Assembly (NCBI GenBank): GCA_041650515.1
Contig: JBAZLA010000001.1
Coordinates: 221,866 to 285,865 of the forward strand
Length of the DNA: 64,000 nt
Reading direction: 5' to 3'
From: Patescibacteria group bacterium
Lineage (GTDB): Bacteria; Patescibacteriota; Patescibacteriia; JACRDY01
The notes under the pieces were generated by a model. That model had not been told where the DNA came from. It searched no databases and saw nothing but the letters and a program-made list of their open reading frames with translations. Below are positions 16,735 through 55,205 of this stretch, in pieces (within the stretch, counting starts at the first letter, position 1; each line of letters starts with the position of its first letter). Position numbers and translations under genes: made by a program.

Positions 16735-17769
16735 TTAAGTCCTGGCGCTGTCTCGTTTTTCGTTGCGCCAGAGCCGGTCGAGATCTTCCAAATAGCGGGG
16801 CTCCACCTGCTCGGCCTCGTAGTCGAGCTGGGCCGGGAACAGCAGGTTGCCGAGCGCCATCTGATCGGTGAGCGATTTGCCCTGGGTCCAGCCGAGGAAG
16901 ACGCGGGGGTCACGAACTGCGAACGTGGTCGAGGGCTGCTCGACCAGATCATGGCTCATGCCCACTTTCTTGTCTCGGAAGAACAAGCAGAAGTCGCCAC
17001 CCGCCGTGCGAACATTGGCTGTGAACTCGGGAGCTTCGGCCAGGCGCGCTTGGTTTCTCGGGCTCTGGTTGGCCAGATCGATGAATCTCGTCATGGCTTC
17101 GAGAACACTCGGCATCGCCTCGGCGTACTCCGGCACCGGTTCGAAGGTGGGAACGGTGATCGCCCTGCTCCAATCGAGTTCATCATCGAAGAGCGGACTC
17201 TGGGCGATCTGAGTGGCCGAGAGCTCGGCCTGGGGGACGACAAACACGTCGGTGATCAGGCCTTCGCGTGTTCGCTTGAAGACCACTTTGATCGGCGTGT
17301 CGCCGCCGTAGATGCCCTGGCGGATGATGCCGGTGGTGGTGCGAATCGCCAGGGCGATCGCGCTGGTCGCTTGGGTCTGGTCGTCCTGCAGGTAGAAGAA
17401 ACCGAAGCCGAACGGCGCCTTGCCATGCATCCGAGCCGGTGCGAAATAAGTGATGACCGGTTCGGCGTAGGCGGCCATGCCGACGTCAGGTAGGTCGATC
17501 AACTCCAGTGCGGCATAGATGCATTTCGGGTTGGTGCACTTGGCCACGAAGGCAGGGGCATAGACCTGGCCGCATTTTGGGCATTGGGCGCCCACCAGCC
17601 GGGCTTCCCGTAGGAGCGGGATGAGCCAGCGGCTTTGTTCTCCGGCAGTCACCATCTGGGGAAAGCCGAAGAGGCGGGGTTGGAGTAGAACTTCGATCCC
17701 GTCGCCGAGTTGTTTGAGCTCGGGGACGAGGGCCATAATCGCTTCAAGCAATTGTCTGTCGATGTACAT
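16735..17769 (-). CDS. Zn-ribbon/OB-fold (DUF35-like) protein with C-terminal extension; thiolase partner
   Basis: Start set to MYIDRQLL (ATG at 17769, GGAGG RBS upstream). CxxC…CxxC zinc ribbon CPKCGQVYAPAFVAKCTNPKC. About 62% GC. Immediately downstream of the thiolase-like gene. Confidence 0.6.
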   Translation of the reverse strand: MYIDRQLLEAIMALVPELKQLGDGIEVLLQPRLFGFPQMVTAGEQSRWLIPLLREARLVGAQCPKCGQVYAPAFVAKCTNPKCIYAALELIDLPDVGMAAYAEPVITYFAPARMHGKAPFGFGFFYLQDDQTQATSAIALAIRTTTGIIRQGIYGGDTPIKVVFKRTREGLITDVFVVPQAELSATQIAQSPLFDDELDWSRAITVPTFEPVPEYAEAMPSVLEAMTRFIDLANQSPRNQARLAEAPEFTANVRTAGGDFCLFFRDKKVGMSHDLVEQPSTTFAVRDPRVFLGWTQGKSLTDQMALGNLLFPAQLDYEAEQVEPRYLEDLDRLWRNEKRDSART

Positions 17770-17783
17770 GGTGGCTGGCCTCC

Positions 17784-19040
17784 TCACGCCGCTTCGAGGT
17801 GGAAGATTTGGACGCCGCCATAGACAGCGCCATCGCCGCCGGTTCCATGGACGAGGCCCCATTCGACTTCGTTTTCGACCATGTACCAATAGACCTCGTT
17901 GGCGCTCATGATGTTTGAAGCGCCGACTGCATGGCCGCAGCCATACAGGCCACTGGCGGGGTCGATAACCCATTTCGGGTTCGGACCGACGACCAGACCG
18001 TCGTAGACGATGTCCTGGACATGCCCGGGTTGGCACATCTTCAGGGCGAGGAAGCTGAGCAGGGTTTGGCCGCCAAAGGCGCCATGATGTCCGATCACAC
18101 CCACTTGATCCGGGCCGATGCCGGCCATATCGTAGGCGCGTTCGGCAGCGATGCGGTGGGAGCGAAATTCGCTGATGTCTTGGAACTGAGGGCCGCGGCC
18201 GGGAATGGTTGATTCACAGGCGTGGCCGACGCCGGCGACGCGAACAAGCGGTCGACCGGTTTGCGAAGCGATCTCTTTGGCCCGGGCGTGGTTGGCCATG
18301 CCGATGACGGCTCCGCCTTCCGAATAAACGCAAACTTCGCCGAGCCGAGTATCGCCGATGATCGGACGGGAGTCCATGATCCAGTCGGCGGTGACCTGTT
18401 CCCCGTAGCGTTGGGCTTTCGGGTTGTTCCGGCTGTGGGAGCAGATCTCCTCGACCATCAGGGCGCGCGCTCGCAACTCGAGATCGCGGGGGTACCGGTA
18501 CTTGTAGCCGTTGATTCTGAATTGGTAGCTGCCGGCGGCGCTGAAGCCCAGCTTGTCGTGCAGCCAGTAGAGCCAGGAAGCCGCGATGGTATCGATGACC
18601 ATCGGGGTGGTGGAGTGGGAGAGCGGGTCGTAGGCGTCTTGGCATTTCTCTACGCCGAGAGCCAGACCGATCTGATGGCGGCCGCTCCGAATAGCATCGT
18701 ACAGCCGGGTCATCGCGGCAAGGCCGGTTTGGCCGCCGGTGGCGACACGGTCGCATTCGATGTTGTTCGTGCCGAGCACCATGTTGGCGAACGACTCGGC
18801 GATGAAGTGGTTCTGGAAGCTGGGATTGTACATCGCATAGGAGATGAAGTCGACCAGACTCATGTTGAACCACGGCCCCATGCGTTCACAGAAGGCCGCG
18901 ATGAGATCCTGGGTGATGCCCAGGAAAGTCTTGTCGAAGTATCTCCCTTTCATTGGCGTGATTTCAGCGCCAAAGACGAAGACGTTTTCCATGGTTACAG
19001 TCCTTTCGTTACGGGTCTCCGTTCGGGGTTTTAGATACAT
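17784..19040 (-). CDS. Thiolase-like protein (SCP-x/Ltp-type thiolase superfamily)
   Basis: 418 aa; thiolase-fold blocks (…GQTGLAAMTRLYDAIRSGRHQIGLALGVEKC…, C-terminal GCGHAVGASN…); GC-rich; same operon as the DUF35-like gene. Confidence 0.75.
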   Translation of the reverse strand: MYLKPRTETRNERTVTMENVFVFGAEITPMKGRYFDKTFLGITQDLIAAFCERMGPWFNMSLVDFISYAMYNPSFQNHFIAESFANMVLGTNNIECDRVATGGQTGLAAMTRLYDAIRSGRHQIGLALGVEKCQDAYDPLSHSTTPMVIDTIAASWLYWLHDKLGFSAAGSYQFRINGYKYRYPRDLELRARALMVEEICSHSRNNPKAQRYGEQVTADWIMDSRPIIGDTRLGEVCVYSEGGAVIGMANHARAKEIASQTGRPLVRVAGVGHACESTIPGRGPQFQDISEFRSHRIAAERAYDMAGIGPDQVGVIGHHGAFGGQTLLSFLALKMCQPGHVQDIVYDGLVVGPNPKWVIDPASGLYGCGHAVGASNIMSANEVYWYMVENEVEWGLVHGTGGDGAVYGGVQIFHLEAA

Positions 19041-33440: not shown

Positions 33441-34202
33441 ATGAATACCAATAAAATAATTAAAGAGTGGCAGACTGAGTTTAAAAGAATGGGTGATCCG
33501 GCGCGCGCGGTTAAGGAAAAAAGTTATGTTCGCAGTCCGTTTAAATTTTATGGCGTGGGCATGGCTGGTCGGGAGAAGATGGCTAAAAAGTTTTTTACAG
33601 ACCACCGAGATTGGAGTATTAAAGATTTATGGCAACTAGTTTGGCCGCTCTGGAATTCCGGCTGGCATGAGTTGCGCGGTTTAGCTTTGGATTTATTGGC
33701 TTTATATAATAAGAAGTTAGCTTACGCGGATTTGCCCTACTTGGAAAAGTTGCTGCGGACGTCAGTTAATTGGGACCAGGTGGATGAAATCTCGGCGCAT
33801 CTGGTGGGATCGGTTTTAGCTCGCGATGAAAGAGTTTATGCTGATCTTAAACGTTGGAGCACGGACAGAAATTTTTGGCTGCGTCGGGCCGCGATGCTTA
33901 GTCAGTTAATTTTATTTCGTCAAAATCTTGGCGATCGTCAATTATTTTATGGTTTTGCCACCAAGATGATGGATGAGTCTTGGCAAAATTTTGATTCCTG
34001 GGCTAAAAATCACCCGGAGAAAATGGGCCGTTGGTTTATCCGCAAGGCGATTGGCTGGGTGCTGCGAGAAATGTCCAAAAAATGGCCGGGGGAAGTTTTC
34101 CAATTTTTACGGAAAAATAAGACTAAACTATCACCGCTGAGTTTCAAAGAGGGCAGCCGTAAGTTGCCGGTTGAGTACAAGGAGAAGCTGGAGATTAGTT
34201 AG
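33441..34202 (+). CDS. DNA alkylation repair enzyme (AlkD-like HEAT-repeat glycosylase family)
   Basis: 253 aa; MNTNKIIKEWQTEFKRMGDPARAVKEKSYVRSPFKFYGVGMAGREKMAKKFF is characteristic of this family. Confidence 0.75.
   Translation: MNTNKIIKEWQTEFKRMGDPARAVKEKSYVRSPFKFYGVGMAGREKMAKKFFTDHRDWSIKDLWQLVWPLWNSGWHELRGLALDLLALYNKKLAYADLPYLEKLLRTSVNWDQVDEISAHLVGSVLARDERVYADLKRWSTDRNFWLRRAAMLSQLILFRQNLGDRQLFYGFATKMMDESWQNFDSWAKNHPEKMGRWFIRKAIGWVLREMSKKWPGEVFQFLRKNKTKLSPLSFKEGSRKLPVEYKEKLEIS
34146..34169. repeat. 24-bp direct repeat AAAGAGGGCAGCCGTAAGTTGCCG, copy 1, inside the 3' end of the AlkD-like gene
   Basis: Identical 24-mer recurs at 35720-35743 on the far side of the beta-helix gene. Confidence 0.85.
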
Positions 34203-35592
34203 TTTTATTTATTCTTACTTTATCGCAAAACTTCTTTTTTTCTGCAACATTAAGACAACTTCCATCGCAGTTTTTTTGGCAAGTATTTGAAGTATTATAA
34301 CAAGACGGTTCGATCTGATCTCTGTTCCTCAGACATCGATAGCCAGCGCACTTGTCGTTGCTAATTGAATAATCATTTTTTTGACTTATAAAACCGTCGT
34401 TATTGTGCCAAGTGAAATAATATTTTAACAAGCAGGAAAAATTATCGCACGATGATAGTTCGATCCCGCAATCACTAGTTTCCGCGATGTTATCTTTCTG
34501 CTCGGAAAAAATTGACCCGTTGTTTATACCGCAATAAATATCGTACAAACCATGATAAGGGGAACAAAAATCTTTTTGATGAGATGTGCAGGCGGTATTG
34601 TTAACTAAAGTGATATCCTTTACTCCATTAAGTACAATATTATTTGAATGATCGGTCTGCCCAAACTCATTAATGTATCCTCTTGAATCAATAATGTTAT
34701 TTTTTATAACAGCGTTAGATACTAATTCTGTTGGACGTGACCAATCTCCAACGGTAATGCCATAATTACTTTTGGCGATTTCGTTATTTATAATGTCAAC
34801 GTTTTTTGAATTATAGATACTTATTCCTTGATAAAAATTTGATATTCTGCAGTTTCTAACAACTACATTTTCTCTAGCAGGATGCCCAACATAATTGCCA
34901 ATATAGAAACCTAAACCGTTGTAGCTTGGTTTTATTTCCACCATTTTATGGCCCTGGCAATCAACAATCACATTGTTTTGACGGATGCCAATACCCTCGC
35001 CAGAAATACTTAAATCTTCAGTGAGTAGATATGTTCCCGGCTCTTTGATATCTAGGGATTCGTTTCGCGAAGATATTTCAAAAAACGGTGTACTGCACTT
35101 TTTTTGGCTGTCTACGCAGGAACCGCTGCCGGTTGTGCACCAGTAACAGCCAGATCTCCCGCACGCATTAATGTTTGATTTTTTTTCGCAAGAGGTTGGT
35201 ACTAGTTGATTAATCATAACATAGCTAAGTTGACCCTGGCTTTCGAGTTTTTTAAATGTACTTTCATAATCTAACGAGCCAGATGATGTCTTTTCCTTAT
35301 TAGGAAGAGCTGCCTTGGCTATGCCAATGTTGCTACTTTTGCCCGCTTCAAGAACTGGCTGGTTGTCGGCATTAGGAAGAGCTGCCTTGGCTATGCCAAT
35401 GTTGCTATCCCCATCCACTTCAGAGATTGGTTGACTATTTTTTATTTTATCGTTTTTATAGATAATAATTCCCAAGATCGTCGTTGCAATTACTATTGTT
35501 AAGACAATCAACCCAGTGATGGCTTTTATTTTATTGGACTTCGGGACTCGCAATATTGGTGTTTGGTTTAGTGGCATCATTGATTCATCCAT
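34195..35592 (-). CDS. Membrane-anchored right-handed parallel beta-helix repeat protein (pectate-lyase/NosD-like fold)
   Basis: 465 aa; N-terminal TM; repeated beta-helix rungs (VVVRNCRISNFYQGISIYNSKNVDIINNEIAKSNYGITVG…NNIIDSRGY); internal 37-bp DNA duplication (35299-35335 and 35371-35407) encodes NIGIAKAALPN twice. Confidence 0.65.
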   Translation of the reverse strand: MDESMMPLNQTPILRVPKSNKIKAITGLIVLTIVIATTILGIIIYKNDKIKNSQPISEVDGDSNIGIAKAALPNADNQPVLEAGKSSNIGIAKAALPNKEKTSSGSLDYESTFKKLESQGQLSYVMINQLVPTSCEKKSNINACGRSGCYWCTTGSGSCVDSQKKCSTPFFEISSRNESLDIKEPGTYLLTEDLSISGEGIGIRQNNVIVDCQGHKMVEIKPSYNGLGFYIGNYVGHPARENVVVRNCRISNFYQGISIYNSKNVDIINNEIAKSNYGITVGDWSRPTELVSNAVIKNNIIDSRGYINEFGQTDHSNNIVLNGVKDITLVNNTACTSHQKDFCSPYHGLYDIYCGINNGSIFSEQKDNIAETSDCGIELSSCDNFSCLLKYYFTWHNNDGFISQKNDYSISNDKCAGYRCLRNRDQIEPSCYNTSNTCQKNCDGSCLNVAEKKKFCDKVRINKTN

Positions 35593-36745: not shown

Positions 36746-38143
36746 ATGTTTAAAAGCCAAACCCAAATCAAAATTTTGACCATTTTTTTACTTTTTGTTT
36801 TTTTGATTACAGCTGGTTTAGGTTGCAAAACCCCTTCTCAGGATGTTCAGCAGGCGACTCAGCCAGTCACTTTAAAATTTTGGCGGGTTTGGGATGACAA
36901 TGAAGATTTTAGTGAAATCATTGCTGCTTATCAGGCGGCTCACCCTTATGTCAATATTGAATATCGACGTTTTCGTTATGAAGAATATGAGCAGGCCCTT
37001 GTTGAAGCTTTAGCTGAAGATCGTGGTCCGGATATTTTTTCGATCAGTAACACTTGGGTCAACCGCTATTTAAGCAAGATTGCTCCGTTGCCCGATCAAA
37101 CTACTATGCCCTATATTAGTACGGTTAAACATCTGGGCATTCAGGAAGAGACAGTTGTTGAGATGAAGTCTAAAAAATCTATCACCCCTCGGGGTGTTAG
37201 AGAAAAGTTTGCTGATGTGGTCGGTCAGGATGTTATTTGGCAAGACCCAGAAACTAATCAGGAAAAAGTGTGGGGTCTACCTCTAAGTGTTGATACTTTA
37301 GCTCTATTTTATAATATTGATTTACTCAATAATGCTGGCATTCCTGAGCCGGCTCGGACCTGGGTTGAGTTTCAGGATCATGTCAAAAAAATCGTTAAAC
37401 AAGATAAAAAAGGTAATATTACTCAAGCTGGGGCGGCCTTAGGTACGGCTGATAATGTTGTGCGGAGTTTTGATATTTTATCATTGTTAATGATGCAAAA
37501 TGGCACTCAGATGAACGCTGGCAATTCGGTTATTTTTAATAGCATCCCCGACAGTTTGAAAGGCCGCGAGATGCCGCCGGGTGAGGAGGCTCTAATCTTC
37601 TATACTGATTTTGCTTACCCAGCTAAAGAAGTGTATACTTGGAATGAGGAAATGCCCAGTTCCCTTGATGCTTTTATCCAGGGTCAGGTGGCCTATTTTT
37701 TCGGCTACGCTTATCATTTAACCGATATCACGAATCGAGCGCCAAAGTTGAGGTTTAATTATAAGACCATGCCGCAGATTGAAGGGAACCCTGAGATTAA
37801 CTTTGCTAATTATTGGATAGAGACGGTTTCGAAAAAGAGTGCTAATACTAATATTGCTTGGGATTTTATTCAATTTGCTACTTCTGCCGAGCAAGTTAAA
37901 AGCTATCTGGATAAAACCGAGCGGCCGACAGCGCTCAAGGAATTAATCAGTACGCAGATTAATGATGAAGCGATGGCGCCGTTTGCCAGCCAATTATTAA
38001 CTGCCAAGAGCTGGTATCGCGGGCGAGATTATGCCACCGCTGAGAAGCTTTTTAAAGACATGATTACAGCGGTAGTTAAGGCTCAAATGACTGTACCCGA
38101 GGCGATTGATCTAGCCGCTTCGCGGATTCAGCAAACGATGTAA
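36746..38143 (+). CDS. Extracellular solute-binding lipoprotein (SBP family 1, sugar-type), orphan
   Basis: 465 aa; signal peptide with lipobox (GLGC); periplasmic binding fold pattern; no permease adjacent. Confidence 0.6.
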   Translation: MFKSQTQIKILTIFLLFVFLITAGLGCKTPSQDVQQATQPVTLKFWRVWDDNEDFSEIIAAYQAAHPYVNIEYRRFRYEEYEQALVEALAEDRGPDIFSISNTWVNRYLSKIAPLPDQTTMPYISTVKHLGIQEETVVEMKSKKSITPRGVREKFADVVGQDVIWQDPETNQEKVWGLPLSVDTLALFYNIDLLNNAGIPEPARTWVEFQDHVKKIVKQDKKGNITQAGAALGTADNVVRSFDILSLLMMQNGTQMNAGNSVIFNSIPDSLKGREMPPGEEALIFYTDFAYPAKEVYTWNEEMPSSLDAFIQGQVAYFFGYAYHLTDITNRAPKLRFNYKTMPQIEGNPEINFANYWIETVSKKSANTNIAWDFIQFATSAEQVKSYLDKTERPTALKELISTQINDEAMAPFASQLLTAKSWYRGRDYATAEKLFKDMITAVVKAQMTVPEAIDLAASRIQQTM

Positions 38144-38172
38144 AAATAATTATCAAGTAAAAATATCTGACT

Positions 38173-38883
38173 ATGGTGGAAACTAAGATAATAAAAAGAT
38201 CGATCTGGCCCAGGCTGATTCTGGTGTTGTTGGTTGTTTTGGTAATTATTATTTTTAATTTTACCGTGGCTCGGGCTGGTTTTGATGGTTATACTTGTGA
38301 AAGTCAGTCGCAGCAGGCAACAATTTGTGTTGGTGGTTGCACCAGCGATTGTCTCAGTTGTTCTGAGACTTCGGATTGTTGTTTAGATGGTGGCAGCAGC
38401 TGTGATACTGGCAGTACCACTGATACTGGCAGTACCACTGATACTGGCAGTACCACTCCGCAAGCATTACCAAAGTGTCAGGCCGGTTGGTATTCTAAAC
38501 CAGTTGGTTTGTTCGCTGATGTTGATCCTAATTGTTACGCCTGTGGTGATTGTACTCTGTGTGATTTTTTGGCGGTGGCTAATGGTTTAGCTAAAATTAT
38601 TTTTTCGGTTTTTGGTGGTGTTGCTTTGGTGATGTTTCTATGGGGTGGTTTAAGCTTTATTTTGGCCGGGGGAGCGGCTGAGAAGATTACTAATGCCAAG
38701 AAGATTCTAATTAGTGCGGTTGTGGGTATTGTGATAATTTTAGCCGCTTGGGAAATAGTTCATTTGGTAATCATCGTTTTTTCTACTTCGCCAGAGCAAT
38801 TACATAAGGGTAATTTTGTCACTGAGTTATTTTCGAATAAAGAAGGTAAGGGTTTACCTTGGAACAATCCGACCTGTAAATAA
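38173..38883 (+). CDS. TrbC/VirB2-like (T4SS pilin-like) family protein, paralog 1, with Cys-rich and GSTTDT-repeat insert
   Basis: 236 aa; N-terminal TM; C-terminal block FGGVALVMFLWGGLSFILAGGAAEKITNAKKILISAVVGIVIILAAWEIV shared with the ten downstream genes. Confidence 0.7.
   Translation: MVETKIIKRSIWPRLILVLLVVLVIIIFNFTVARAGFDGYTCESQSQQATICVGGCTSDCLSCSETSDCCLDGGSSCDTGSTTDTGSTTDTGSTTPQALPKCQAGWYSKPVGLFADVDPNCYACGDCTLCDFLAVANGLAKIIFSVFGGVALVMFLWGGLSFILAGGAAEKITNAKKILISAVVGIVIILAAWEIVHLVIIVFSTSPEQLHKGNFVTELFSNKEGKGLPWNNPTCK
38404..38457. repeat. 18-bp in-frame tandem repeat x3 (GATACTGGCAGTACCACT; encodes GSTTDT)
   Basis: Three perfect copies head to tail inside paralog 1. Confidence 0.9.
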
Positions 38884-38886
38884 AGT

Positions 38887-39315
38887 ATGAATAAAGTCCA
38901 AAAAATCATTATTTTTAGTTTGTTAGTCTTTATTGGTCTAACTTTTCTGGTTAATCTAGCCGTGGCTTTTGAGCCATTAAAAAACCCCTTGAATATTGAG
39001 ATTAAGAGCCCCGCCCAGGTCTATGAGTTGATCGGTCGGGTATCTCAGGCGATTTTGGGTTTAGTTGGTTCAGCGGTTTTTGTGATGTTCATTTACGGTG
39101 GAATTACCTGGTTGCTATCTGGCGGTGCCGAAGAAAAGATCAAAAAGGCTCGAGGAACATTAGTTTGGTCGCTCTTTGGCTTATTAATTATATTCACTAG
39201 CTACGCCTTATTAAGTTTTACCATCCGTTATATTACTATTGCGACTGGCGTCAGCACCGAAGCTTTTAGTGACAGCGGTAGCGATCAACCAGGTCCGCCG
39301 GCTGGTGGGCAGTAA
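38887..39315 (+). CDS. TrbC/VirB2-like pilin-like family protein, paralog 2
   Basis: 142 aa; signal/TM; C-terminal VGSAVFVMFIYGGITWLLSGGAEEKIKKARGTLVWSLFGLLIIFTSYALLSF. Confidence 0.75.
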   Translation: MNKVQKIIIFSLLVFIGLTFLVNLAVAFEPLKNPLNIEIKSPAQVYELIGRVSQAILGLVGSAVFVMFIYGGITWLLSGGAEEKIKKARGTLVWSLFGLLIIFTSYALLSFTIRYITIATGVSTEAFSDSGSDQPGPPAGGQ

Positions 39316-39321
39316 TCTGTA

Positions 39322-39351
39322 TTGACAATTTGGGGTAAAAGATATTATAAT
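39322..39351 (+). promoter_or_regulatory. Sigma70-like promoter (TTGACA, 18-nt spacer, TATAAT) upstream of paralog 3
   Basis: Consensus hexamers at 39322-39327 and 39346-39351; followed by RBS AAAGGGGG. Confidence 0.45.
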
Positions 39352-39406
39352 ATAGAGGTATTAATTAGTTTATTAATTTAATCTCCACAAAGAAAGGGGG
39401 TGAAGT

Positions 39407-39766
39407 ATGAACAAAATTATTAAAGTATCGACCTTAGTTTTCCTTTTGGCCCTGTTAGTTGTCCCACATTTTGCTGGTGCCATCGACTTGGGCTTGGGTT
39501 ATGCCACGGCCACTGGTTTGACCAGTACGGATATTCGCGTAACCGTTTCTCGGATTATTAACGTCGCCCTAGGTCTTTTGGGTGTTATCGCAGTGGTGAT
39601 TATTTTAGTTGGCGGCTTCAAGTGGATGACGGCTGGTGGTAATGAAGAAAAAGTTACCGAAGCTAAAAAATTGATTGCGGCTGGTGTTATTGGTTTAGCA
39701 ATTATCTTAACTGCTTATGCCATCGCTGCCTTCGTGATCAACTCCTTGCTCAAGGCCGTACAATAG
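39407..39766 (+). CDS. TrbC/VirB2-like pilin-like family protein, paralog 3
   Basis: 119 aa; C-terminal LGVIAVVIILVGGFKWMTAGGNEEKVTEAKKLIAAGVIGLAIILTAYAIAAFV. Confidence 0.75.
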   Translation: MNKIIKVSTLVFLLALLVVPHFAGAIDLGLGYATATGLTSTDIRVTVSRIINVALGLLGVIAVVIILVGGFKWMTAGGNEEKVTEAKKLIAAGVIGLAIILTAYAIAAFVINSLLKAVQ

Positions 39767-39822
39767 TTAGTTTGAGTAATCATTGAAGTGTTTAATGCCT
39801 CAGCTGGGTAATTAAATTTTTG

Positions 39823-39937
39823 GGGGCCCAGCCCCTTTCTTACTCACGATGATCATAGTTTCGCCTAATAGGATAATTTGGCGCTAGCTGTAGGTAATAT
39901 TAACTACCCGTGGTTGAGAAAGGGGCGGGCCCCCCTA
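39823..39937. repeat. GC-rich ~30-bp imperfect inverted repeat with 55-bp spacer between pilin-like genes 3 and 4
   Basis: TTTTGGGGGCCCAGCCCCTTTCTTACTCACG … CGTGGTTGAGAAAGGGGCGGGCCCCCCTAAA; about 27 of 31 arm positions are complementary. Confidence 0.7.
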
Positions 39938-39948
39938 AATAAGCATTT

Positions 39949-40353
39949 ATGAATCGGAAAAATATTAATAAAGTGTTGTTTCTTGCGTTGGTTGGTATTT
40001 TGGTTTTGCCAGTGTTATGTCTAGCAGCGACTCAACCCGGTACGGCTGATTTTGGCTTAACATCAACAGCGAGCCAGGCTTATGGCACTAAGCCAGCGCA
40101 GACTGATCCGACGGTGATTACTGGCACCATCATTGGCGTGATTCTTTCTTCATTGGGTATTATTTTTATGATCCAGGTTATTTTGGCTGGCATCAAATGG
40201 CTGACCGCTCAAGGTAATGAAGAGAAAATCACTAGCGCTCGCAAGAGCTTGATTCATTCTATCATTGGTTTGGTTATTGTTCTGTCGGCCTATACTCTAG
40301 TCTACTTTGTGATGGGGCAGATACTTTTTCCAGCTATTGGTATCAAGAAATAA
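39949..40353 (+). CDS. TrbC/VirB2-like pilin-like family protein, paralog 4
   Basis: 134 aa; C-terminal LGIIFMIQVILAGIKWLTAQGNEEKITSARKSLIHSIIGLVIVLSAYTLVYFV. Confidence 0.75.
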   Translation: MNRKNINKVLFLALVGILVLPVLCLAATQPGTADFGLTSTASQAYGTKPAQTDPTVITGTIIGVILSSLGIIFMIQVILAGIKWLTAQGNEEKITSARKSLIHSIIGLVIVLSAYTLVYFVMGQILFPAIGIKK

Positions 40354-40366
40354 TTTTGTATAATAC

Positions 40367-40777
40367 ATGAAAGTTTTTTCGAACAAAATACTGATAATCA
40401 TAGTCACCTGGTTTCTTATAATTTTTGCTGTTCCAGCCGTGGCTACTGAGGTGCCGCCAACCTTATTAAATGCCCCCGAACAAGCCGGTGGTCTAGCTGT
40501 TAAGGCCGGTTATCCCGAGAAACCGCGGGCACCAGAAGAAGTGGTCGGCCGGCTGATTTCTTATGCGATGGGCGCTTTGGGCGTTGTTTTCTTTGTCCTG
40601 ATGGTTTATGGTGGTTGGCTGTGGCTAACAGCTAGCGGCAATGAAGAACAAATTACTAAAGCCAAGAAACTAATTATCGAAGCAGTTATTGGTCTAGCGA
40701 TTATTTTTGCCGCTTATGCCATCACCTACTTTGTGGTTAGTAAAGCTCTAAGTAGCATTACGCCCGAGACAGAGTAG
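40367..40777 (+). CDS. TrbC/VirB2-like pilin-like family protein, paralog 5
   Basis: 136 aa; C-terminal LGVVFFVLMVYGGWLWLTASGNEEQITKAKKLIIEAVIGLAIIFAAYAITYFV. Confidence 0.75.
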   Translation: MKVFSNKILIIIVTWFLIIFAVPAVATEVPPTLLNAPEQAGGLAVKAGYPEKPRAPEEVVGRLISYAMGALGVVFFVLMVYGGWLWLTASGNEEQITKAKKLIIEAVIGLAIIFAAYAITYFVVSKALSSITPETE

Positions 40778-40784
40778 TAATATT

Positions 40785-41243
40785 GTGATATTGATTATGG
40801 CTAATATTTTTAAAAAAATCTATTTTCTAGCTCTTGTATTTTTATTACTCCTACCCTTGGTGGGCGTTTTGGCCGGTGATAAGGATGAGTGGAAACCCGG
40901 TAAGCTAACCAATATTACCAGTGAGCTGGAGCGAACTGGTGGTGAACAAGGTATGGGTGTGGATGTTGAAAATTTGAGCAAAGACGAGGCGCTGTATAAA
41001 ATTATTGGTAAGTGGGTTAATTGGGTAACTTCTTTTTTGGGTGTAGTGTTTACTTTATTAATAATCTATGGCGGCTGGTTGTGGTTTTCGGCTAATGGTA
41101 ATGAAGAAAAAATTACCCAAGCTAAAAAAATTATTATTAATTCAGTGATTGCCCTGGCCATAGTGCTGTTTGCTTGGATAATTACATCGACCGTATTGTA
41201 TTATACAGCTAGTGCTTCAGTGACTTCCGTAAGTGGACAATAA
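40785..41243 (+). CDS. TrbC/VirB2-like pilin-like family protein, paralog 6
   Basis: 152 aa; C-terminal LGVVFTLLIIYGGWLWFSANGNEEKITQAKKIIINSVIALAIVLFAWIIT. Confidence 0.75.
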   Translation: MILIMANIFKKIYFLALVFLLLLPLVGVLAGDKDEWKPGKLTNITSELERTGGEQGMGVDVENLSKDEALYKIIGKWVNWVTSFLGVVFTLLIIYGGWLWFSANGNEEKITQAKKIIINSVIALAIVLFAWIITSTVLYYTASASVTSVSGQ

Positions 41244-41248
41244 TTTAT

Positions 41249-41734
41249 ATGATATATGTAACACAATATGGTTTTTTGAAAATTATCTCAATACTATTTT
41301 TAGTATTGTTTTTGTTTAATAGTTTGTTAACGCCGGCTCTAGCTGTTGAGAACGCTTTGTTGGATATTGAGAATATGGCAAAAACTGGTGCCCAAGTGGC
41401 GGGGGAAGGTGGTTATTATACTGGCGATGACCCGGCGGTTGGTGCTAAAGTTTGGGTAGAGAGTACTAGTTATATTATTAGAATAATTATAACCTTTGTT
41501 GGTGTTTTATTTTTTGTTTTGATGATCTATGGCGGGGTTTTATGGATGACGGCTGGTGGCAATGAAGAACAGGTTAAAAAAGCCAGAAGTATATTAATCC
41601 AAGCATTGGTTGGTATAGTGATTGTTTTTGCTGCCTATGCCGTTACTGTCCTAGTATTTTATGTCCTTGGCAGTGAAACCTCTGGTGTTTATAATGTTGG
41701 TGAGATGCCGACAGATACACCTGAAGTTGATTAG
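41249..41734 (+). CDS. TrbC/VirB2-like pilin-like family protein, paralog 7
   Basis: 161 aa; C-terminal VGVLFFVLMIYGGVLWMTAGGNEEQVKKARSILIQALVGIVIVFAAYAVTVLVF. Confidence 0.75.
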   Translation: MIYVTQYGFLKIISILFLVLFLFNSLLTPALAVENALLDIENMAKTGAQVAGEGGYYTGDDPAVGAKVWVESTSYIIRIIITFVGVLFFVLMIYGGVLWMTAGGNEEQVKKARSILIQALVGIVIVFAAYAVTVLVFYVLGSETSGVYNVGEMPTDTPEVD

Positions 41735-41800
41735 CGGTTGGGACCTAATATTCTGGTAAATTATTAGTTTAAAAATAGTAAGAGGGTTTTTAGCTAGTTT

Positions 41801-42244
41801 ATGTCTATAAAATACAGTTATAAAATTTGTCTTCTGACCTTGTTAGCTATGATGTTAATTTCGCCATTGATTGGCTGTCTAGCGGGGGAAGAGGTTGACC
41901 TTAATGCAACGGTAGTTGATAGTTTACGTAATTCCGCTGGTGTTAAGGGTGCTGGTTATAACACGGAGGCAACAGAGGAAGGAACGAATGGAAATATTAT
42001 AGTTATCTACCTTGGTAGAATAATCAAATACGCCTTGACTTTTTTGGGTGTAATTTTCTTTCTTTTTATGATTTATGGCGGTATCCGCTGGATGGTTGCT
42101 CAGGGTAATGAGGAACAGGTGACTGAGGCAAAAAAAATGATTAAAAGTAGTGTTATTGGTTTGGTTATTATTCTATCTGCCGGAATTGTCGCCTGGGTTG
42201 TTTTTGAATATTTATTTAAGGCGACCACTGGTCAATCCAGTTAA
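41801..42244 (+). CDS. TrbC/VirB2-like pilin-like family protein, paralog 8
   Basis: 147 aa; C-terminal LGVIFFLFMIYGGIRWMVAQGNEEQVTEAKKMIKSSVIGLVIILSAGIVAWVVF. Confidence 0.75.
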   Translation: MSIKYSYKICLLTLLAMMLISPLIGCLAGEEVDLNATVVDSLRNSAGVKGAGYNTEATEEGTNGNIIVIYLGRIIKYALTFLGVIFFLFMIYGGIRWMVAQGNEEQVTEAKKMIKSSVIGLVIILSAGIVAWVVFEYLFKATTGQSS

Positions 42245-42258
42245 GTTTATCTAAATTT

Positions 42259-42735
42259 GTGTTTATGTTGATCGAGACAAAAAAAATTAAATTTTTATTC
42301 TCATTTATTTTGTTGGTATTTTGTTTATTACCGTCATTATCTGTGATGGCTGTAGAGCAACCTCATCAGACTGCTACAGACTGGCATCGTGATTTTATAA
42401 CTGCTAGTGGTTTTGCTATACCCGGTACGACCGAGGGTGCTAATCTAGAAAGTGGAATCACCAATATTATCGCGCTTATTTTGTCAGTTGTTTTATCGAC
42501 CTTGGGCGCAATCTTTTTGATTCTAGTTCTTTATGCTGGTATTCTGTGGATGACCGCTGGTGGCAACCAAGAGCAGGTGACTAAGGCTAAGAAGCTGTTA
42601 ATTAATGCTACCATTGGTTTAACGATTGTTTTGTCGGCTTATGCTATTACCTATATTGTGATGGCCTGGCTGGGTAATGCCATTGGTTATGATACTGGCG
42701 ACGGCTTTACGGCTCCGCCAGCCGGCTCTCTATAA
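42259..42735 (+). CDS. TrbC/VirB2-like pilin-like family protein, paralog 9
   Basis: 158 aa; C-terminal LGAIFLILVLYAGILWMTAGGNQEQVTKAKKLLINATIGLTIVLSAYAITYIVM. Confidence 0.75.
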   Translation: MFMLIETKKIKFLFSFILLVFCLLPSLSVMAVEQPHQTATDWHRDFITASGFAIPGTTEGANLESGITNIIALILSVVLSTLGAIFLILVLYAGILWMTAGGNQEQVTKAKKLLINATIGLTIVLSAYAITYIVMAWLGNAIGYDTGDGFTAPPAGSL

Positions 42736-42765
42736 ATCAAGTTAACTCATTGTCTGATATAAAGT

Positions 42766-43194
42766 ATGTATAAACGAATCACTATTTTTATCCTGGGGTT
42801 GGTTTTATTATCTAATATGCTGGGCGTTGGATTGGCGGCTGCTGCTGATGGTGAAGACCCGACAATTATGGGCACGCTGGGCCCGATTGCCACCCAGGCG
42901 GGCTATAGCGAGGATACGCAAGAGATGAGTGTGTTTATCATTGTGGCTAATGTTTTGTCTATTCTTTTTACTACTCTGGGCGTCATCTTTATGCTTATTG
43001 TGCTCTATGCTGGTTTTCGCTGGATGACGGCTGGTGGTAATGAAGAAAAGGTTACCGAAGCTAAAAAACTACTGATTAACGCGACAATCGGCTTAGCCAT
43101 TGTTTTATTGGCTCTGAGTATTACCTATTTTGTTGGCGGCGCCCTAGGGCCAGCGATTGGCGAAGAGTATAATCCCGCTCAAGGTTTCTTTTAA
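42766..43194 (+). CDS. TrbC/VirB2-like pilin-like family protein, paralog 10
   Basis: 142 aa; C-terminal LGVIFMLIVLYAGFRWMTAGGNEEKVTEAKKLLINATIGLAIVLLALSITYFV. Confidence 0.75.
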   Translation: MYKRITIFILGLVLLSNMLGVGLAAAADGEDPTIMGTLGPIATQAGYSEDTQEMSVFIIVANVLSILFTTLGVIFMLIVLYAGFRWMTAGGNEEKVTEAKKLLINATIGLAIVLLALSITYFVGGALGPAIGEEYNPAQGFF

Positions 43195-43211
43195 ACTTAA
43201 ATATTTGCTTT

Positions 43212-43661
43212 ATGGCTAAAAAGATTTTCTTTTCGATAATTTTGTTGTTTACTCTATCGCTATTAGTAGCTCCGGCTTTGGTTTTTGCTGAAAAAGATGA
43301 CCTTGGCGTACCCTGGGAAGAAGGTGAAGCCACGGTTTGGGATCGAATGAGATTTGGCTTACAGCCGACTGAGAAGATCGCCTATGGTATTGAAGGCGAG
43401 GTCAGAATACCGCTACTGCTAGATACCGTAATGTATTTGGTGCAGGTATTTTTGACTACCCTGGGTGTTATTTTTGTGATTATTGTGGTCTATGCTGGTT
43501 TTCGTTGGATGACCGCTGGCGGCAACCAGGAGCAAGTGACTGAGGCTCGTAAACTATTGATCAACGCCACGATTGGTCTGGCAATTGTCATTATGTCTTT
43601 ATCTATTACCTATTTTATCGTTTACGCCCTATTGTATAGTTCTAGAGGCACCAAGAATTAA
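43212..43661 (+). CDS. TrbC/VirB2-like pilin-like family protein, paralog 11
   Basis: 149 aa; C-terminal LGVIFVIIVVYAGFRWMTAGGNQEQVTEARKLLINATIGLAIVIMSLSITYFIV. Confidence 0.75.
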   Translation: MAKKIFFSIILLFTLSLLVAPALVFAEKDDLGVPWEEGEATVWDRMRFGLQPTEKIAYGIEGEVRIPLLLDTVMYLVQVFLTTLGVIFVIIVVYAGFRWMTAGGNQEQVTEARKLLINATIGLAIVIMSLSITYFIVYALLYSSRGTKN

Positions 43662-43684
43662 CATTGGTCGTTTATAGTTTACCT

Positions 43685-43709
43685 AAAAAGCCCCTTCGGG
43701 GGCTTTTAT
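43685..43709. terminator. Bidirectional rho-independent terminator (AAAAAGCCCC-TTCG-GGGGCTTTT)
   Basis: Perfect GC stem with A-run before and T-run after, between the convergent pilin array (+) and the PFOR delta-subunit gene (-). Confidence 0.75.
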
Positions 43710-43726
43710 TGTAGAGGGTTATTATA

Positions 43727-43999
43727 TTACTTTTCATCCCTAATCATGGTAATTGCCGCAAAGGGGCAGACCTTAGCACAAAGACCACAACCTTTACAAA
43801 AATCATAGTCGGTGTCTCGATAATTTTTATTATTCTTATTTGTTTTGCCAGTTGGATAGATTATGCCCTCGGGGCAGCTTTGTTCACAAAGGCCGCAGCC
43901 GGTGCACTGATCATGCAAAAACACTGGCTTAAATGTCCGCCAATTGCCGGTTTTATTTTTGGTGCTCTCGCCCGCTGGAGTTGAAGGTTGATATTTCAT
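43727..43999 (-). CDS. porD: Pyruvate/2-oxoacid:ferredoxin oxidoreductase delta subunit (2[4Fe-4S] ferredoxin)
   Basis: 90 aa; two CxxCxxCxxxCP clusters (CTGCGLCEQSCP and CKGCGLCAKVCP); follows the gamma subunit. Confidence 0.8.
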   Translation of the reverse strand: MKYQPSTPAGESTKNKTGNWRTFKPVFLHDQCTGCGLCEQSCPEGIIYPTGKTNKNNKNYRDTDYDFCKGCGLCAKVCPFAAITMIRDEK

Positions 44000-44106
44000 A
44001 GTTTAGTTCGCAGTCCGTAGTCCACAGTCCCCCTCGACGAGACCGGCCCTGAGTTTAGCCGAAAGGCTCGGGGCAGGCATAGTAGAGGAACGTTGAACCG
44101 CCAAGG

Positions 44107-50849: not shown

Positions 50850-51290
50850 TTGACAAAGAAGGTAATAAGTGTTAAGGTTAAAAATCATTTAGTGTTTTTT
50901 TTGGATCAAAAACAGGAGGTGTCTGGGATGACTACCAGGAAAGTGATTACGATCCATGCGCGCGAGCATGGCGGAACCCTGATTTTCCGGGTCTGGAACG
51001 GCCTCAAAGAGGCCTACGAGACCAATGGTTTGCCGGCGGCTGGGGTTTTCAAGTGGTTGATGGTTCAATGTATGGTTGAAAATATTCAACCTGCATCCGT
51101 CATCGATCTGCGAGACCTGGGGTTGGCTGACCTGACGCAGAAGATTACGGAGCTGTATGATCTGTGCGATGGGTTCGCCAAGCGGGCGCTCGGCATCGCT
51201 GAGCGGACCGGTGATTCGGCCGACGAGCAGGCTGACCTGCTCGATGAGGAAACCTGGCTGGACGGCCAGCCGGTGGTCGCGGCATTCTGA
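50850..51290 (+). CDS. Hypothetical protein, GC-rich (start probably MTTRKVITIH at 50928)
   Basis: 146 aa ORF; sequence after 50928 is about 60% GC, unlike flanks; GGAGG RBS before 50928; terminator at 51325. Confidence 0.5.
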   Translation: MTKKVISVKVKNHLVFFLDQKQEVSGMTTRKVITIHAREHGGTLIFRVWNGLKEAYETNGLPAAGVFKWLMVQCMVENIQPASVIDLRDLGLADLTQKITELYDLCDGFAKRALGIAERTGDSADEQADLLDEETWLDGQPVVAAF

Positions 51291-51324
51291 CGCCGCTTCC
51301 CCGTCGTCCGATTCTAGGAGGTTG

Positions 51325-51347
51325 GGCGTGCTTGCACGCCTTTTTTT
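51325..51347 (+). terminator. Rho-independent terminator (GGCGTG-CTTG-CACGCC followed by TTTTTTT)
   Basis: Perfect stem and T7 run. Confidence 0.7.
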
Positions 51348-51397: not shown

Positions 51398-51760
51398 TCA
51401 GCGGCGGAGGTTAAGATTAGTTCCTTTAATTAAGCCATTAATTAATTCTGGCAGCGAATTTAATTTATCAGTTATAGAATTATATTCTTTTAGACTAATT
51501 AATTCTCGGATTTTAGATTTTTCTATAAAGTCTTTGGTCTCAGCGACAGAACCACGGGCGTAGATATAAAATAATATCTTGTCCTTTTTATAATATCGGA
51601 ACCAACCTTCAGCTATGTTGCTCGATATAGAATCAGCCGACCTAATTAGCTGCTTGCCGATAGTGTCTTTAGCTAAGTAATCCCAGCGGCTGACGATATT
51701 CCAAATATCATTAGCCAACTCAAAACCCAAGATATAGGCATAATGTTCTTCTAATTTCAT
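51398..51760 (-). CDS. Four-helix-bundle protein (TIGR02436, 23S rRNA intervening-sequence protein family; Avd-like)
   Basis: 120 aa; LIRSADSISSNIAEGWFRYYKKDKILFYIYARGSVAETKDFIEK matches the family signature. Confidence 0.75.
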   Translation of the reverse strand: MKLEEHYAYILGFELANDIWNIVSRWDYLAKDTIGKQLIRSADSISSNIAEGWFRYYKKDKILFYIYARGSVAETKDFIEKSKIRELISLKEYNSITDKLNSLPELINGLIKGTNLNLRR

Positions 51761-54732: not shown

Positions 54733-54737
54733 AGTAT

Positions 54738-55205
54738 CTAAGTAGGGTAGTAAGCCGAATTCAGTCACGTAAAGGCTCGCTGGCGCTCGCCCACGCGACA
54801 AGTCCCAGCTTAGAATTATTGGACTTGTCCCGTAAACGAGCGTAGCGAGTTCTACGGGATGGTTATCTATCTAGGTCCGATGTTGCCACCGGACTCAAGC
54901 GAGCAACTAAATTGCTCTTGCACCAGGGAGGGTTTACCATCACATCCCGGTCGCCCGGGAGGAAGAAAAGTAGCTACTTTAAGAAATCATATGATTTTCT
55001 CAAGAAACACCTTTTCTCTTTTCACCTTTGGCCCGCCAAATTGGTGGGTTATCATTGTCTCTGTGACACTTTCCCTAAGATTACTCTTGGTCGCTGTTAG
55101 CGACTCCCATTAACTCCGATAAATCGGAGGGTGTTCGGACTTTCCTCCCCCATGATCCGTCAAATTGGCGGATTTTACGGGGGCAACCACCTTGCCTACT
55201 TAGAT
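54738..55205 (-). ncRNA. rnpB: RNase P RNA (bacterial type A)
   Basis: Minus strand carries GGGGGAGGAAAGTCCGAAC (P4 5' strand), …GACTGAATTCGGCTTAC (P4 3' strand), CACAGAGACAA (ACAGARA), and GGTAAACCCTCCCTGGTGCAAG. The P1 ends CTAAGTAGG and CCTACTTAG are complementary. Confidence 0.8.

Follow-up and report, generated by a model that had tools for sequence, protein, structure and literature searches.

What is the role of a long GC-rich inverted repeat placed between two genes of a pilin array? The question is raised by a stretch of 64,000 nucleotides from a Patescibacteria genome, referred to here at its full length as the window, in which such a repeat lies between the third and the fourth of a series of pilin-like paralogues. 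An earlier note on this DNA proposed several candidate roles, namely an attenuator or terminator splitting the array into two units, a small RNA, or an invertible or insertion-site element recognized by a recombinase.

Pilin array and its transcription signals

The T4SS_pilin array consists of 12 tandem genes on the + strand (38173-43661), and a match to PF18895 (T4SS_pilin) was found in all ten array genes that were scanned against Pfam. The gap between gene 3 and gene 4, which contains the inverted repeat, is the widest of the array with its 182 nt. The genes on both sides of the gap and the signals in front of them are as follows.

39322..39351, + strand: sigma-70-type promoter TTGACA-18-TATAAT, 12/12 match to the consensus
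39394..39403, + strand: strong Shine-Dalgarno sequence of gene 3, AAGGGGGTGA, read from the sequence
39407..39766, + strand: gene 3, T4SS_pilin (PF18895), Pfam E = 4e-10
39949..40353, + strand: gene 4, a fast-evolving pilin paralogue without its own promoter and without its own Shine-Dalgarno sequence

Database homologues of gene 3 number 2247 at E ≤ 1e-8 and those of gene 4 number 12 at E ≤ 1e-5, the closest database proteins carrying the label of a Patescibacteria (CPR) metagenome-assembled genome; by this measure no other gene of the array is nearly as conserved as gene 3. Its product is probably the major, highly expressed subunit, a level of expression that is read only from its consensus promoter, its Shine-Dalgarno sequence and how well the gene is conserved. 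The promoter at 39322, which the earlier note had described as sigma70-like, turned out to be a perfect TTGACA-18-TATAAT. The suggestion that it defines a transcription unit fits with the presence of an equivalent promoter in 10/10 lineages scored, where the match is 10-12/12 and the distance to the ATG of the pilin 3 orthologue is 41-84 nt. The Shine-Dalgarno sequence AAGGGGGTGA is also kept in three related lineages (L019, L021 and L082).

The start of gene 4 is differently equipped. Its ATG is located 14 nt past the last G-C pair of the stem, no Shine-Dalgarno sequence is present at a normal distance from this ATG, and the promoter scan (threshold 9/12) returned zero promoter-like sites from the stop codon of gene 3 up to this ATG. 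Because gene 4 lies behind the hairpin without a promoter, the hairpin must let some transcription pass, which is the behavior of a leaky structure or an attenuator. Further promoter-like sites within the array are located at 40337-40364 (10/12) and 41667-41695 (11/12). The former ends 3 nt before the ATG of gene 5, which would imply either a leaderless or a non-functional arrangement.

The first pilin paralogue (38173-38883, + strand) carries a Cys-rich N-terminal extension with three GSTTDT repeats, and upstream of the array (34195-35592, - strand) a cysteine-rich protein of 465 aa is encoded, for which Pfam gave no match.

Geometry and folding of the inverted repeat

The repeat was delimited by a repeat search of the window and by folding of the corresponding RNA, which divide it into three parts.

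39818..39848, + strand: 5′ arm (repeat search, RNAfold), flagged as terminator-like
39849..39908, + strand: interior of 60 nt, forming two small hairpins (39855-39891 and 39893-39908) atop the long stem
39909..39939, + strand: 3′ arm (repeat search, RNAfold), followed by UAAAUAAG

The GC-rich inverted repeat reported in the earlier note does exist, and its dimensions have to be corrected: the two arms of 31 nt are complementary at 25/31 positions without gaps (81%) rather than at 27/31, and they are separated by 60 nt rather than 55 bp. A 19-nt arm pattern, allowing up to 3 mismatches, is expected by chance 0.01 times in the window and was found only as the two arms. A chance origin of the inverted repeat is excluded. 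The repeat search detected no second strong inverted repeat between paralogues in 38000-44000, in agreement with the earlier statement that nothing comparable separates the other paralogues, and the element is thus confined to one of the 11 junctions of the array.

In the RNA of the + strand, RNAfold pairs 39822-39848 with 39909-39934 in a main stem interrupted by one bulged A (39830) and one C.U mismatch and including two U.G wobbles. Four outer A-U pairs (39816-19 with 39937-40) bring the stem to 29 pairs in total. On the 3′ side of the stem 20 pairs follow each other in an unbroken run and on the 5′ side there is one bulge, so that the stem has the length of near-continuous double-stranded RNA (about 20 bp) that characterizes an RNase III substrate. 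The folding energy of the + strand is -62.7 kcal/mol (z -6.5), and none of the 200 shuffled sequences was as stable, which confirms the expectation of a very stable RNA stem-loop. The fold of the - strand is weaker (-56.8 kcal/mol), and the imperfect pairs of the stem read U.G on the + strand, which is G+T-rich.

Among the local structures of up to 140 nt on both strands of the 64 kb (RNALfold), the element occupies rank 6, preceded by a tRNA region and GC-rich islands. Two GC-rich regions were recorded elsewhere in the window. The segment 16000-20000 is a GC-rich island (52-53%, against ~40% for the genome), whose - strand carries ORFs for a thiolase-like protein (17784-19040) and for a protein with weak similarity to a ChsH2/DUF35-type zinc ribbon (16735-18036); since the pairing of a thiolase and a zinc ribbon is typical of archaeal thiolase complexes, horizontal transfer is possible. 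The second region, at 51185-51340, is a GC-rich patch (~64% GC by eye) with a folding energy of -80 kcal/mol (z -2.9), and it adjoins a gene for a 23S rRNA intervening-sequence protein (51398-51760, - strand; PF05635, E = 4e-22).

The composition of the element itself was overstated in two respects. The GC content is 70% in the arms and 37% in the spacer, and as the latter is close to the genome average of ~40%, the spacer is not unusually AT-rich as had been supposed. The description of the stem as compositionally alien to the genome is misleading, because the relatives have GC-rich hairpins at the equivalent position.

The same locus in related lineages

Orthologous loci were fetched via the two flanking proteins. 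The order of genes is kept among them and includes NTP_transferase, SBP_bac_8, pilin 1, pilin 2, a gap, pilin 3, a gap of 50-200 nt, pilin 4 and the remaining genes. A strong hairpin follows pilin 3 in 10 of the 12 lineages read, and these hairpins are unrelated in sequence and variable in size. The structures after pilin 3 are listed below.

L019: perfect 24-nt palindrome, GGGGGGCGCCAGCTGGCGCCCCCC
L020: 10-bp stem
L021/L022: two hairpins
L074: weak remnant only
L077/L078: 23-bp stem
L079: 7-bp AU stem only, in a 50-nt gap; left out of the z-scores
L080/L081: stem of ~23 bp with a 5′ arm as in L077 and a 95-nt branched interior
L082: one hairpin of ~45 nt
L084: one hairpin of ~95 nt
L089: 11-bp stem with a U-rich tail
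L090/L091: 33-bp stem and a second hairpin

The stability of these structures was compared with that of the gaps on the other side of the gene. Across ten lineages, the z-scores of the downstream gap lie between -3.6 and -7.9 in eight cases and reach -2.0 in L089, where a hairpin is locally clear despite this value, and -0.6 in L074. The upstream gaps of pilin 3, which bear the promoter, are unstructured in ten lineages (z -0.8 to +1.3). The gap behind the gene therefore holds what characterizes a protective hairpin, namely a stable structure 3′ of the upstream cistron with a position conserved across orthologous operons.

Two further observations concern the level at which the structure is maintained. 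In 10/10 downstream gaps the better fold is that of the + strand, a preference that might stem partly from the G+T-rich composition of this strand. Where L077 differs from L080, or L090 from L091, the pairing is retained, through changes of A-U to G.U or G.U to G-C; the chance that all four L077-L080 changes would be tolerated under neutrality is ~18%. The strand preference and the changes that keep the pairing may lend weak support to selection at the RNA level, and the argument from wobble pairs by strand was downgraded because of the G+T-rich + strand and this neutral chance, the substitutions being too few for a statistical decision.

In L079 (3376-3553) the conserved pilin is followed by 50 nt and then by an apparent second copy, at which the 323-kb contig ends. 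The contig may break off here because the assembly failed at a tandem duplication.

Long form and copy number

The window carries a long variant of the hairpin, and the closest relative, L019 (75-76% protein identity), indicates where the additional length is located. Both have in common the intergenic flanks, including a 29-nt AT-rich box, and the outer G/C clamp of the hairpin (GGGGG(G)C..CC / GG..GCCCCCC). The loop of the L019 hairpin has 4 nt, and the window version is ~91 nt longer in its apical part. L077 and L080, too, are set apart by sequence gained or lost at the apex. The interiors of the long forms are dissimilar to each other and to every fetched locus.

No second copy of the element, full or partial, was present in the 64-kb window or in the fetched loci. 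The arm pattern GGGGGCCCN{0,1}GCCCCTTTCT matched 16 times in the species-representative genomes, each a single chance match in a high-GC genome, the pattern GCCCCTTTCT-N61-91-AGAAAGGGGC gave 38 unrelated hairpins in the JGI metagenomes, and the 9-nt pattern CCCCTTTCT-N61-91-AGAAAGGGG gave 13 unrelated hairpins in viral contigs. As none of the three scans returned the window's own locus, they are weak evidence on the copy number.

The scans brought up two groups of sequences from other organisms. Long hairpins with the arms AAAAGGGGCCTGCCCCTTTCTCGACAA / TTGTCGAGAAAGGGGCAGGCCCCTTTT are present in two high-GC soil metagenome contigs (L030 690-812 and L057 137-257), where they sit among overlapping ORF calls on both strands. 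Their layout, with a small GC hairpin, a T tract, a spacer and an inverted copy, is that of the window element in unrelated organisms. An identical stretch, unrelated to the window, occurs in 13 metagenome contigs (L023, L026, L035, L036, L038, L039, L042, L049-L051, L054, L058 and L060), four of them labelled as human-gut assemblies. Bounded by the inverted pattern, it measures 102 nt with the 9-nt pattern and 104 nt with the 10-nt pattern, and it probably represents one common species or a conserved element.

Terminator features and the AT-rich box

The stem begins 55 nt past the stop of gene 3 on the sense (+) strand, and it provides the GC-rich stem-loop of an intrinsic terminator. A U tract directly 3′ of the full stem is absent, its place being taken by UAAAUAAG, and for this reason the element is not a canonical terminator. 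Within the 5′ arm, a possible mini-hairpin GGGGGCCCAGCCCCU, which could form during transcription, is located at 39822-39836, with 6 GC base pairs and -9.6 kcal/mol, and is followed by UUUCUUACU. It is the only part of the element with a U-rich follow-on (UUUCUU). Such a combination may plausibly act as a weak intrinsic terminator; the mini-hairpin with its U tract is absent from L077, L080 and L090.

Two further elements define the context of the hairpin.

39790..39818, + strand: AT-rich box GTTTAATGCCTCAGCTGGGTAATTAAATT, just 5′ of the hairpin, 27/29 identical in L019
43686..43707, no strand assigned: canonical bidirectional intrinsic terminator AAAAGCCCCTTCGGGGGCTTTT, found by the exact-stem scan, -13.9 kcal/mol

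The terminator AAAAGCCCCTTCGGGGGCTTTT sits between the last pilin gene and a convergent ferredoxin-like gene, and its presence means that this genome does use terminators with a U tract. The AT-rich box stands out in the comparison of the window with L019, where the remaining intergenic sequence has diverged. Its core GTAATTAAWTT is found also in L074 and L084. The box GTTTAATRCCYCAGCTGGGTAATTAAATT corresponds to 39790-39818 in the window, 1050-1078 in L019, ~3394-3412 in L074 and ~1892-1905 in L084, and in these four lineages it is located 2-7 nt 5′ of hairpins that differ in sequence. As a candidate promoter, the box is not convincing.

A probable stem-loop at the 3′ end of the major-pilin transcript

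The consensus promoter, the pilin gene and the + strand hairpin form a conserved cassette, and on this basis the element is read as the 3′ stem-loop of the major-pilin transcript. The window element is most likely a long variant of a transcript-end or attenuator hairpin whose position after the major pilin gene is conserved. We consider it probable that this intercistronic stem-loop partly terminates the major-pilin transcript, stabilizes it, or does both, and sets its level apart from that of the downstream paralogues. The earlier proposal of an attenuator or terminator splitting the array fits the evidence, as the promoter, the conserved pilin and the hairpin recur in most lineages; only a canonical terminator, which would have a U tract, does not.

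The course of events that we infer, with termination, shielding from decay, a possible RNase III cut and their effect on the protein ratio, would be as follows. Transcription would start from the consensus promoter at 39322 and proceed through gene 3. About 55 nt past its stop, the small GC hairpin followed by UUUCUU would halt part of the polymerases. Behind those polymerases that pass the mini-hairpin, the full 29-bp stem would form, a structure expected to block 3′→5′ exonucleases and long enough to serve as an RNase III substrate. The gene 3 message would then end in a protective hairpin, and genes 4 onward would receive only read-through transcripts or transcripts begun at weaker promoters within the array, near 40337 and 41667. 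The predicted outcome is an abundance of major pilin with only small amounts of the paralogues further downstream.

Several features speak against this reading. A 29-bp stem with a branched interior of 60 nt far exceeds what termination or protection needs. No U tract follows the full stem, though the genome has one at 43686, and the structure is weak in L074 and reduced to a 7-bp AU stem in L079.

Alternative explanations

The same hairpin can be considered from the side of the genes that follow it. A weak promoter in the AT-rich box (39790-39818), from which transcripts would begin at the G run, or an RNase cut in this box would give the mRNA of genes 4-12 a start with a protective 5′ hairpin guarding it against RNase J, and papBA is a known type of such mRNA protection by a 5′ hairpin. 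This role as a processing site or 5′ stabilizer appears unlikely. It is favored by the constancy of the box in front of differing hairpins, by a TAAATT hexamer at 39813-39818 that would put the start of transcription at about 39825, within the first bases of the stem, by the RNase J gene that the same genome carries 4 kb downstream of the array, and by a stem of at least 20 bp, which is competent for RNase III. However, the promoter scan gave nothing at or above 9/12 at the box, the supposed -35 and -10 elements lie at varying distances (L074 is 11 nt shorter), and the box is absent from L077, L080, L082, L089 and L090. The six-frame translation of the 64-kb window, a small sample of the genome, contains no RNase III signature.

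The apical position of the additional length would also fit a different origin, in which a short terminator hairpin of the ancestor, similar to that of L019, would have received in its loop either a miniature inverted-repeat element of the Correia or REP kind or a palindrome arising from template switching, and the long form would do no more than the hairpin before it. The arms would then be terminal inverted repeats of ~30 bp, and the difference of ~91 nt between two hairpins with the same flanks and outer clamp would be the insertion itself; the apical change between L077 and L080 and the unrelated interiors of the lineages point in the same direction. Such a selfish insertion is rather improbable, since the inverted ends are accompanied neither by a target-site duplication, none being read from the sequence around the repeat, nor by a transposase nearby, and no copy was found in the 64 kb or in the public scans, which also missed the window's own locus. 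A more speculative view, to which we give a similarly small chance, treats the long GC-clamped hairpins (23-33 bp) with variable apices after the conserved pilin of several Patescibacteria lineages as a class of their own, either a module processed by RNase III that would release a 3′UTR-derived RNA or bind a pilus regulator, or a small palindromic mobile element that would specifically colonize terminator loops in these reduced genomes.

An independently transcribed gene for a small structured RNA of ~115 nt would account for the high stability, the three-way branching, the preference for the + strand and the G run at the start of the element. Yet it would lack its own promoter or terminator, and neither the interior sequence nor the architecture is conserved in any orthologous locus. 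Rfam 15, applied at the gathering threshold to the whole window, returned RNase P RNA and four tRNAs and nothing at the element, and even at E ≤ 10 the 351 nt around the element gave only two chance matches, to eukaryotic families. With no Rfam match, no promoter-like site in front and no conserved interior, the small RNA suggested in the earlier note is very unlikely. SRP/4.5S RNA, 6S RNA, Y RNA, hammerhead ribozymes and retron msr/msd were each rejected, as their conserved motifs are absent in a by-eye comparison, with which Rfam agrees. The RNase P RNA found in the window is of the bacterial class A (54735-55202, - strand), and its 468 nt against a model of 367 positions imply sizeable insertions. 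The last alternative acts at the level of DNA and sees the repeat as a switch or recombination site, which might be a segment that inverts, a cassette site of the attC kind or some other target of a recombinase. Inverted repeats flanking a short segment within an array of paralogous surface proteins are a common setting of phase variation. The 60-bp spacer, however, contains no promoter in either orientation, no recombinase or integrase is encoded within 10 kb on each side, and two other assemblies from different samples (L001 and L002) are identical to the window over a 196-bp region and have the same orientation, the sampling being limited to these three assemblies. This leaves the invertible or insertion-site role put forward earlier, and any recombination site in general, hardly credible. 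An integron attC site was rejected on account of the single site among the 11 junctions, the lack of a GTTRRRY / RYYYAAC core and the lack of an integrase.

Implications for pilin arrays

The main value of the element lies in what it marks. The trio of promoter, conserved gene and hairpin points to gene 3 as the gene that probably encodes the major subunit in patescibacterial T4SS_pilin arrays, which makes it a concrete candidate for structural or expression work, and the trio offers a simple rule for locating the equivalent gene in other genomes. Apart from this, the element is most likely an ordinary kind of expression signal. A search of the literature on pilin hairpins in Patescibacteria found nothing specific.

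Comparison with known systems

Correia- and REP-type elements share with the window element a length of ~115 bp, inverted ends of ~30 bp, an intergenic location and the possibility of an RNA hairpin. They differ from it in that the window element was detected as a single copy, has no target duplication and occupies a position orthologous to plain hairpins in the relatives.

RNase III processing hairpins between cistrons are exemplified by the sites of the phage T7 early mRNA, e.g., R1.1. The cleavage of a long intercistronic stem by RNase III leaves a 3′ hairpin that stabilizes the upstream message. The window stem resembles R1.1 as a long, nearly perfect double-stranded stem between cistrons, and by analogy it may be cleaved. 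In the 64 kb covered by the window, no gene for RNase III came to light.

In the pap pilus operon, a terminator after papA is combined with mRNA processing, and the product is also a major pilin. Its arrangement, like that of mccA-mccB, includes a strong promoter, a short and abundant first product, a hairpin in the first gap and expression of the downstream genes by read-through, all of which have their observed or predicted likeness in the window. The difference is that the full stem of the window has no U tract, and only the 6-bp mini-hairpin at 39822-39836 precedes UUUCUU. The intrinsic terminator between mccA and mccB is leaky (PMC4231749).

The malE-malF intergenic region of E. coli contains a protective REP hairpin, and differential decay within operons is widespread (Dar & Sorek 2018, PMC5927463). 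The window element differs from it by its place outside any detected genome-wide repeat family, by its much longer stem (29 bp) with a branched top, and by its host, a Patescibacterium with RNase J rather than the RNase set of E. coli; a role in decay would be assigned to it by analogy. The likeness of the two lies in a stable stem-loop after a cistron that is, in the window presumably, needed in excess, in the downstream cistrons on the same transcript, and in a structure whose position is conserved in the relatives.
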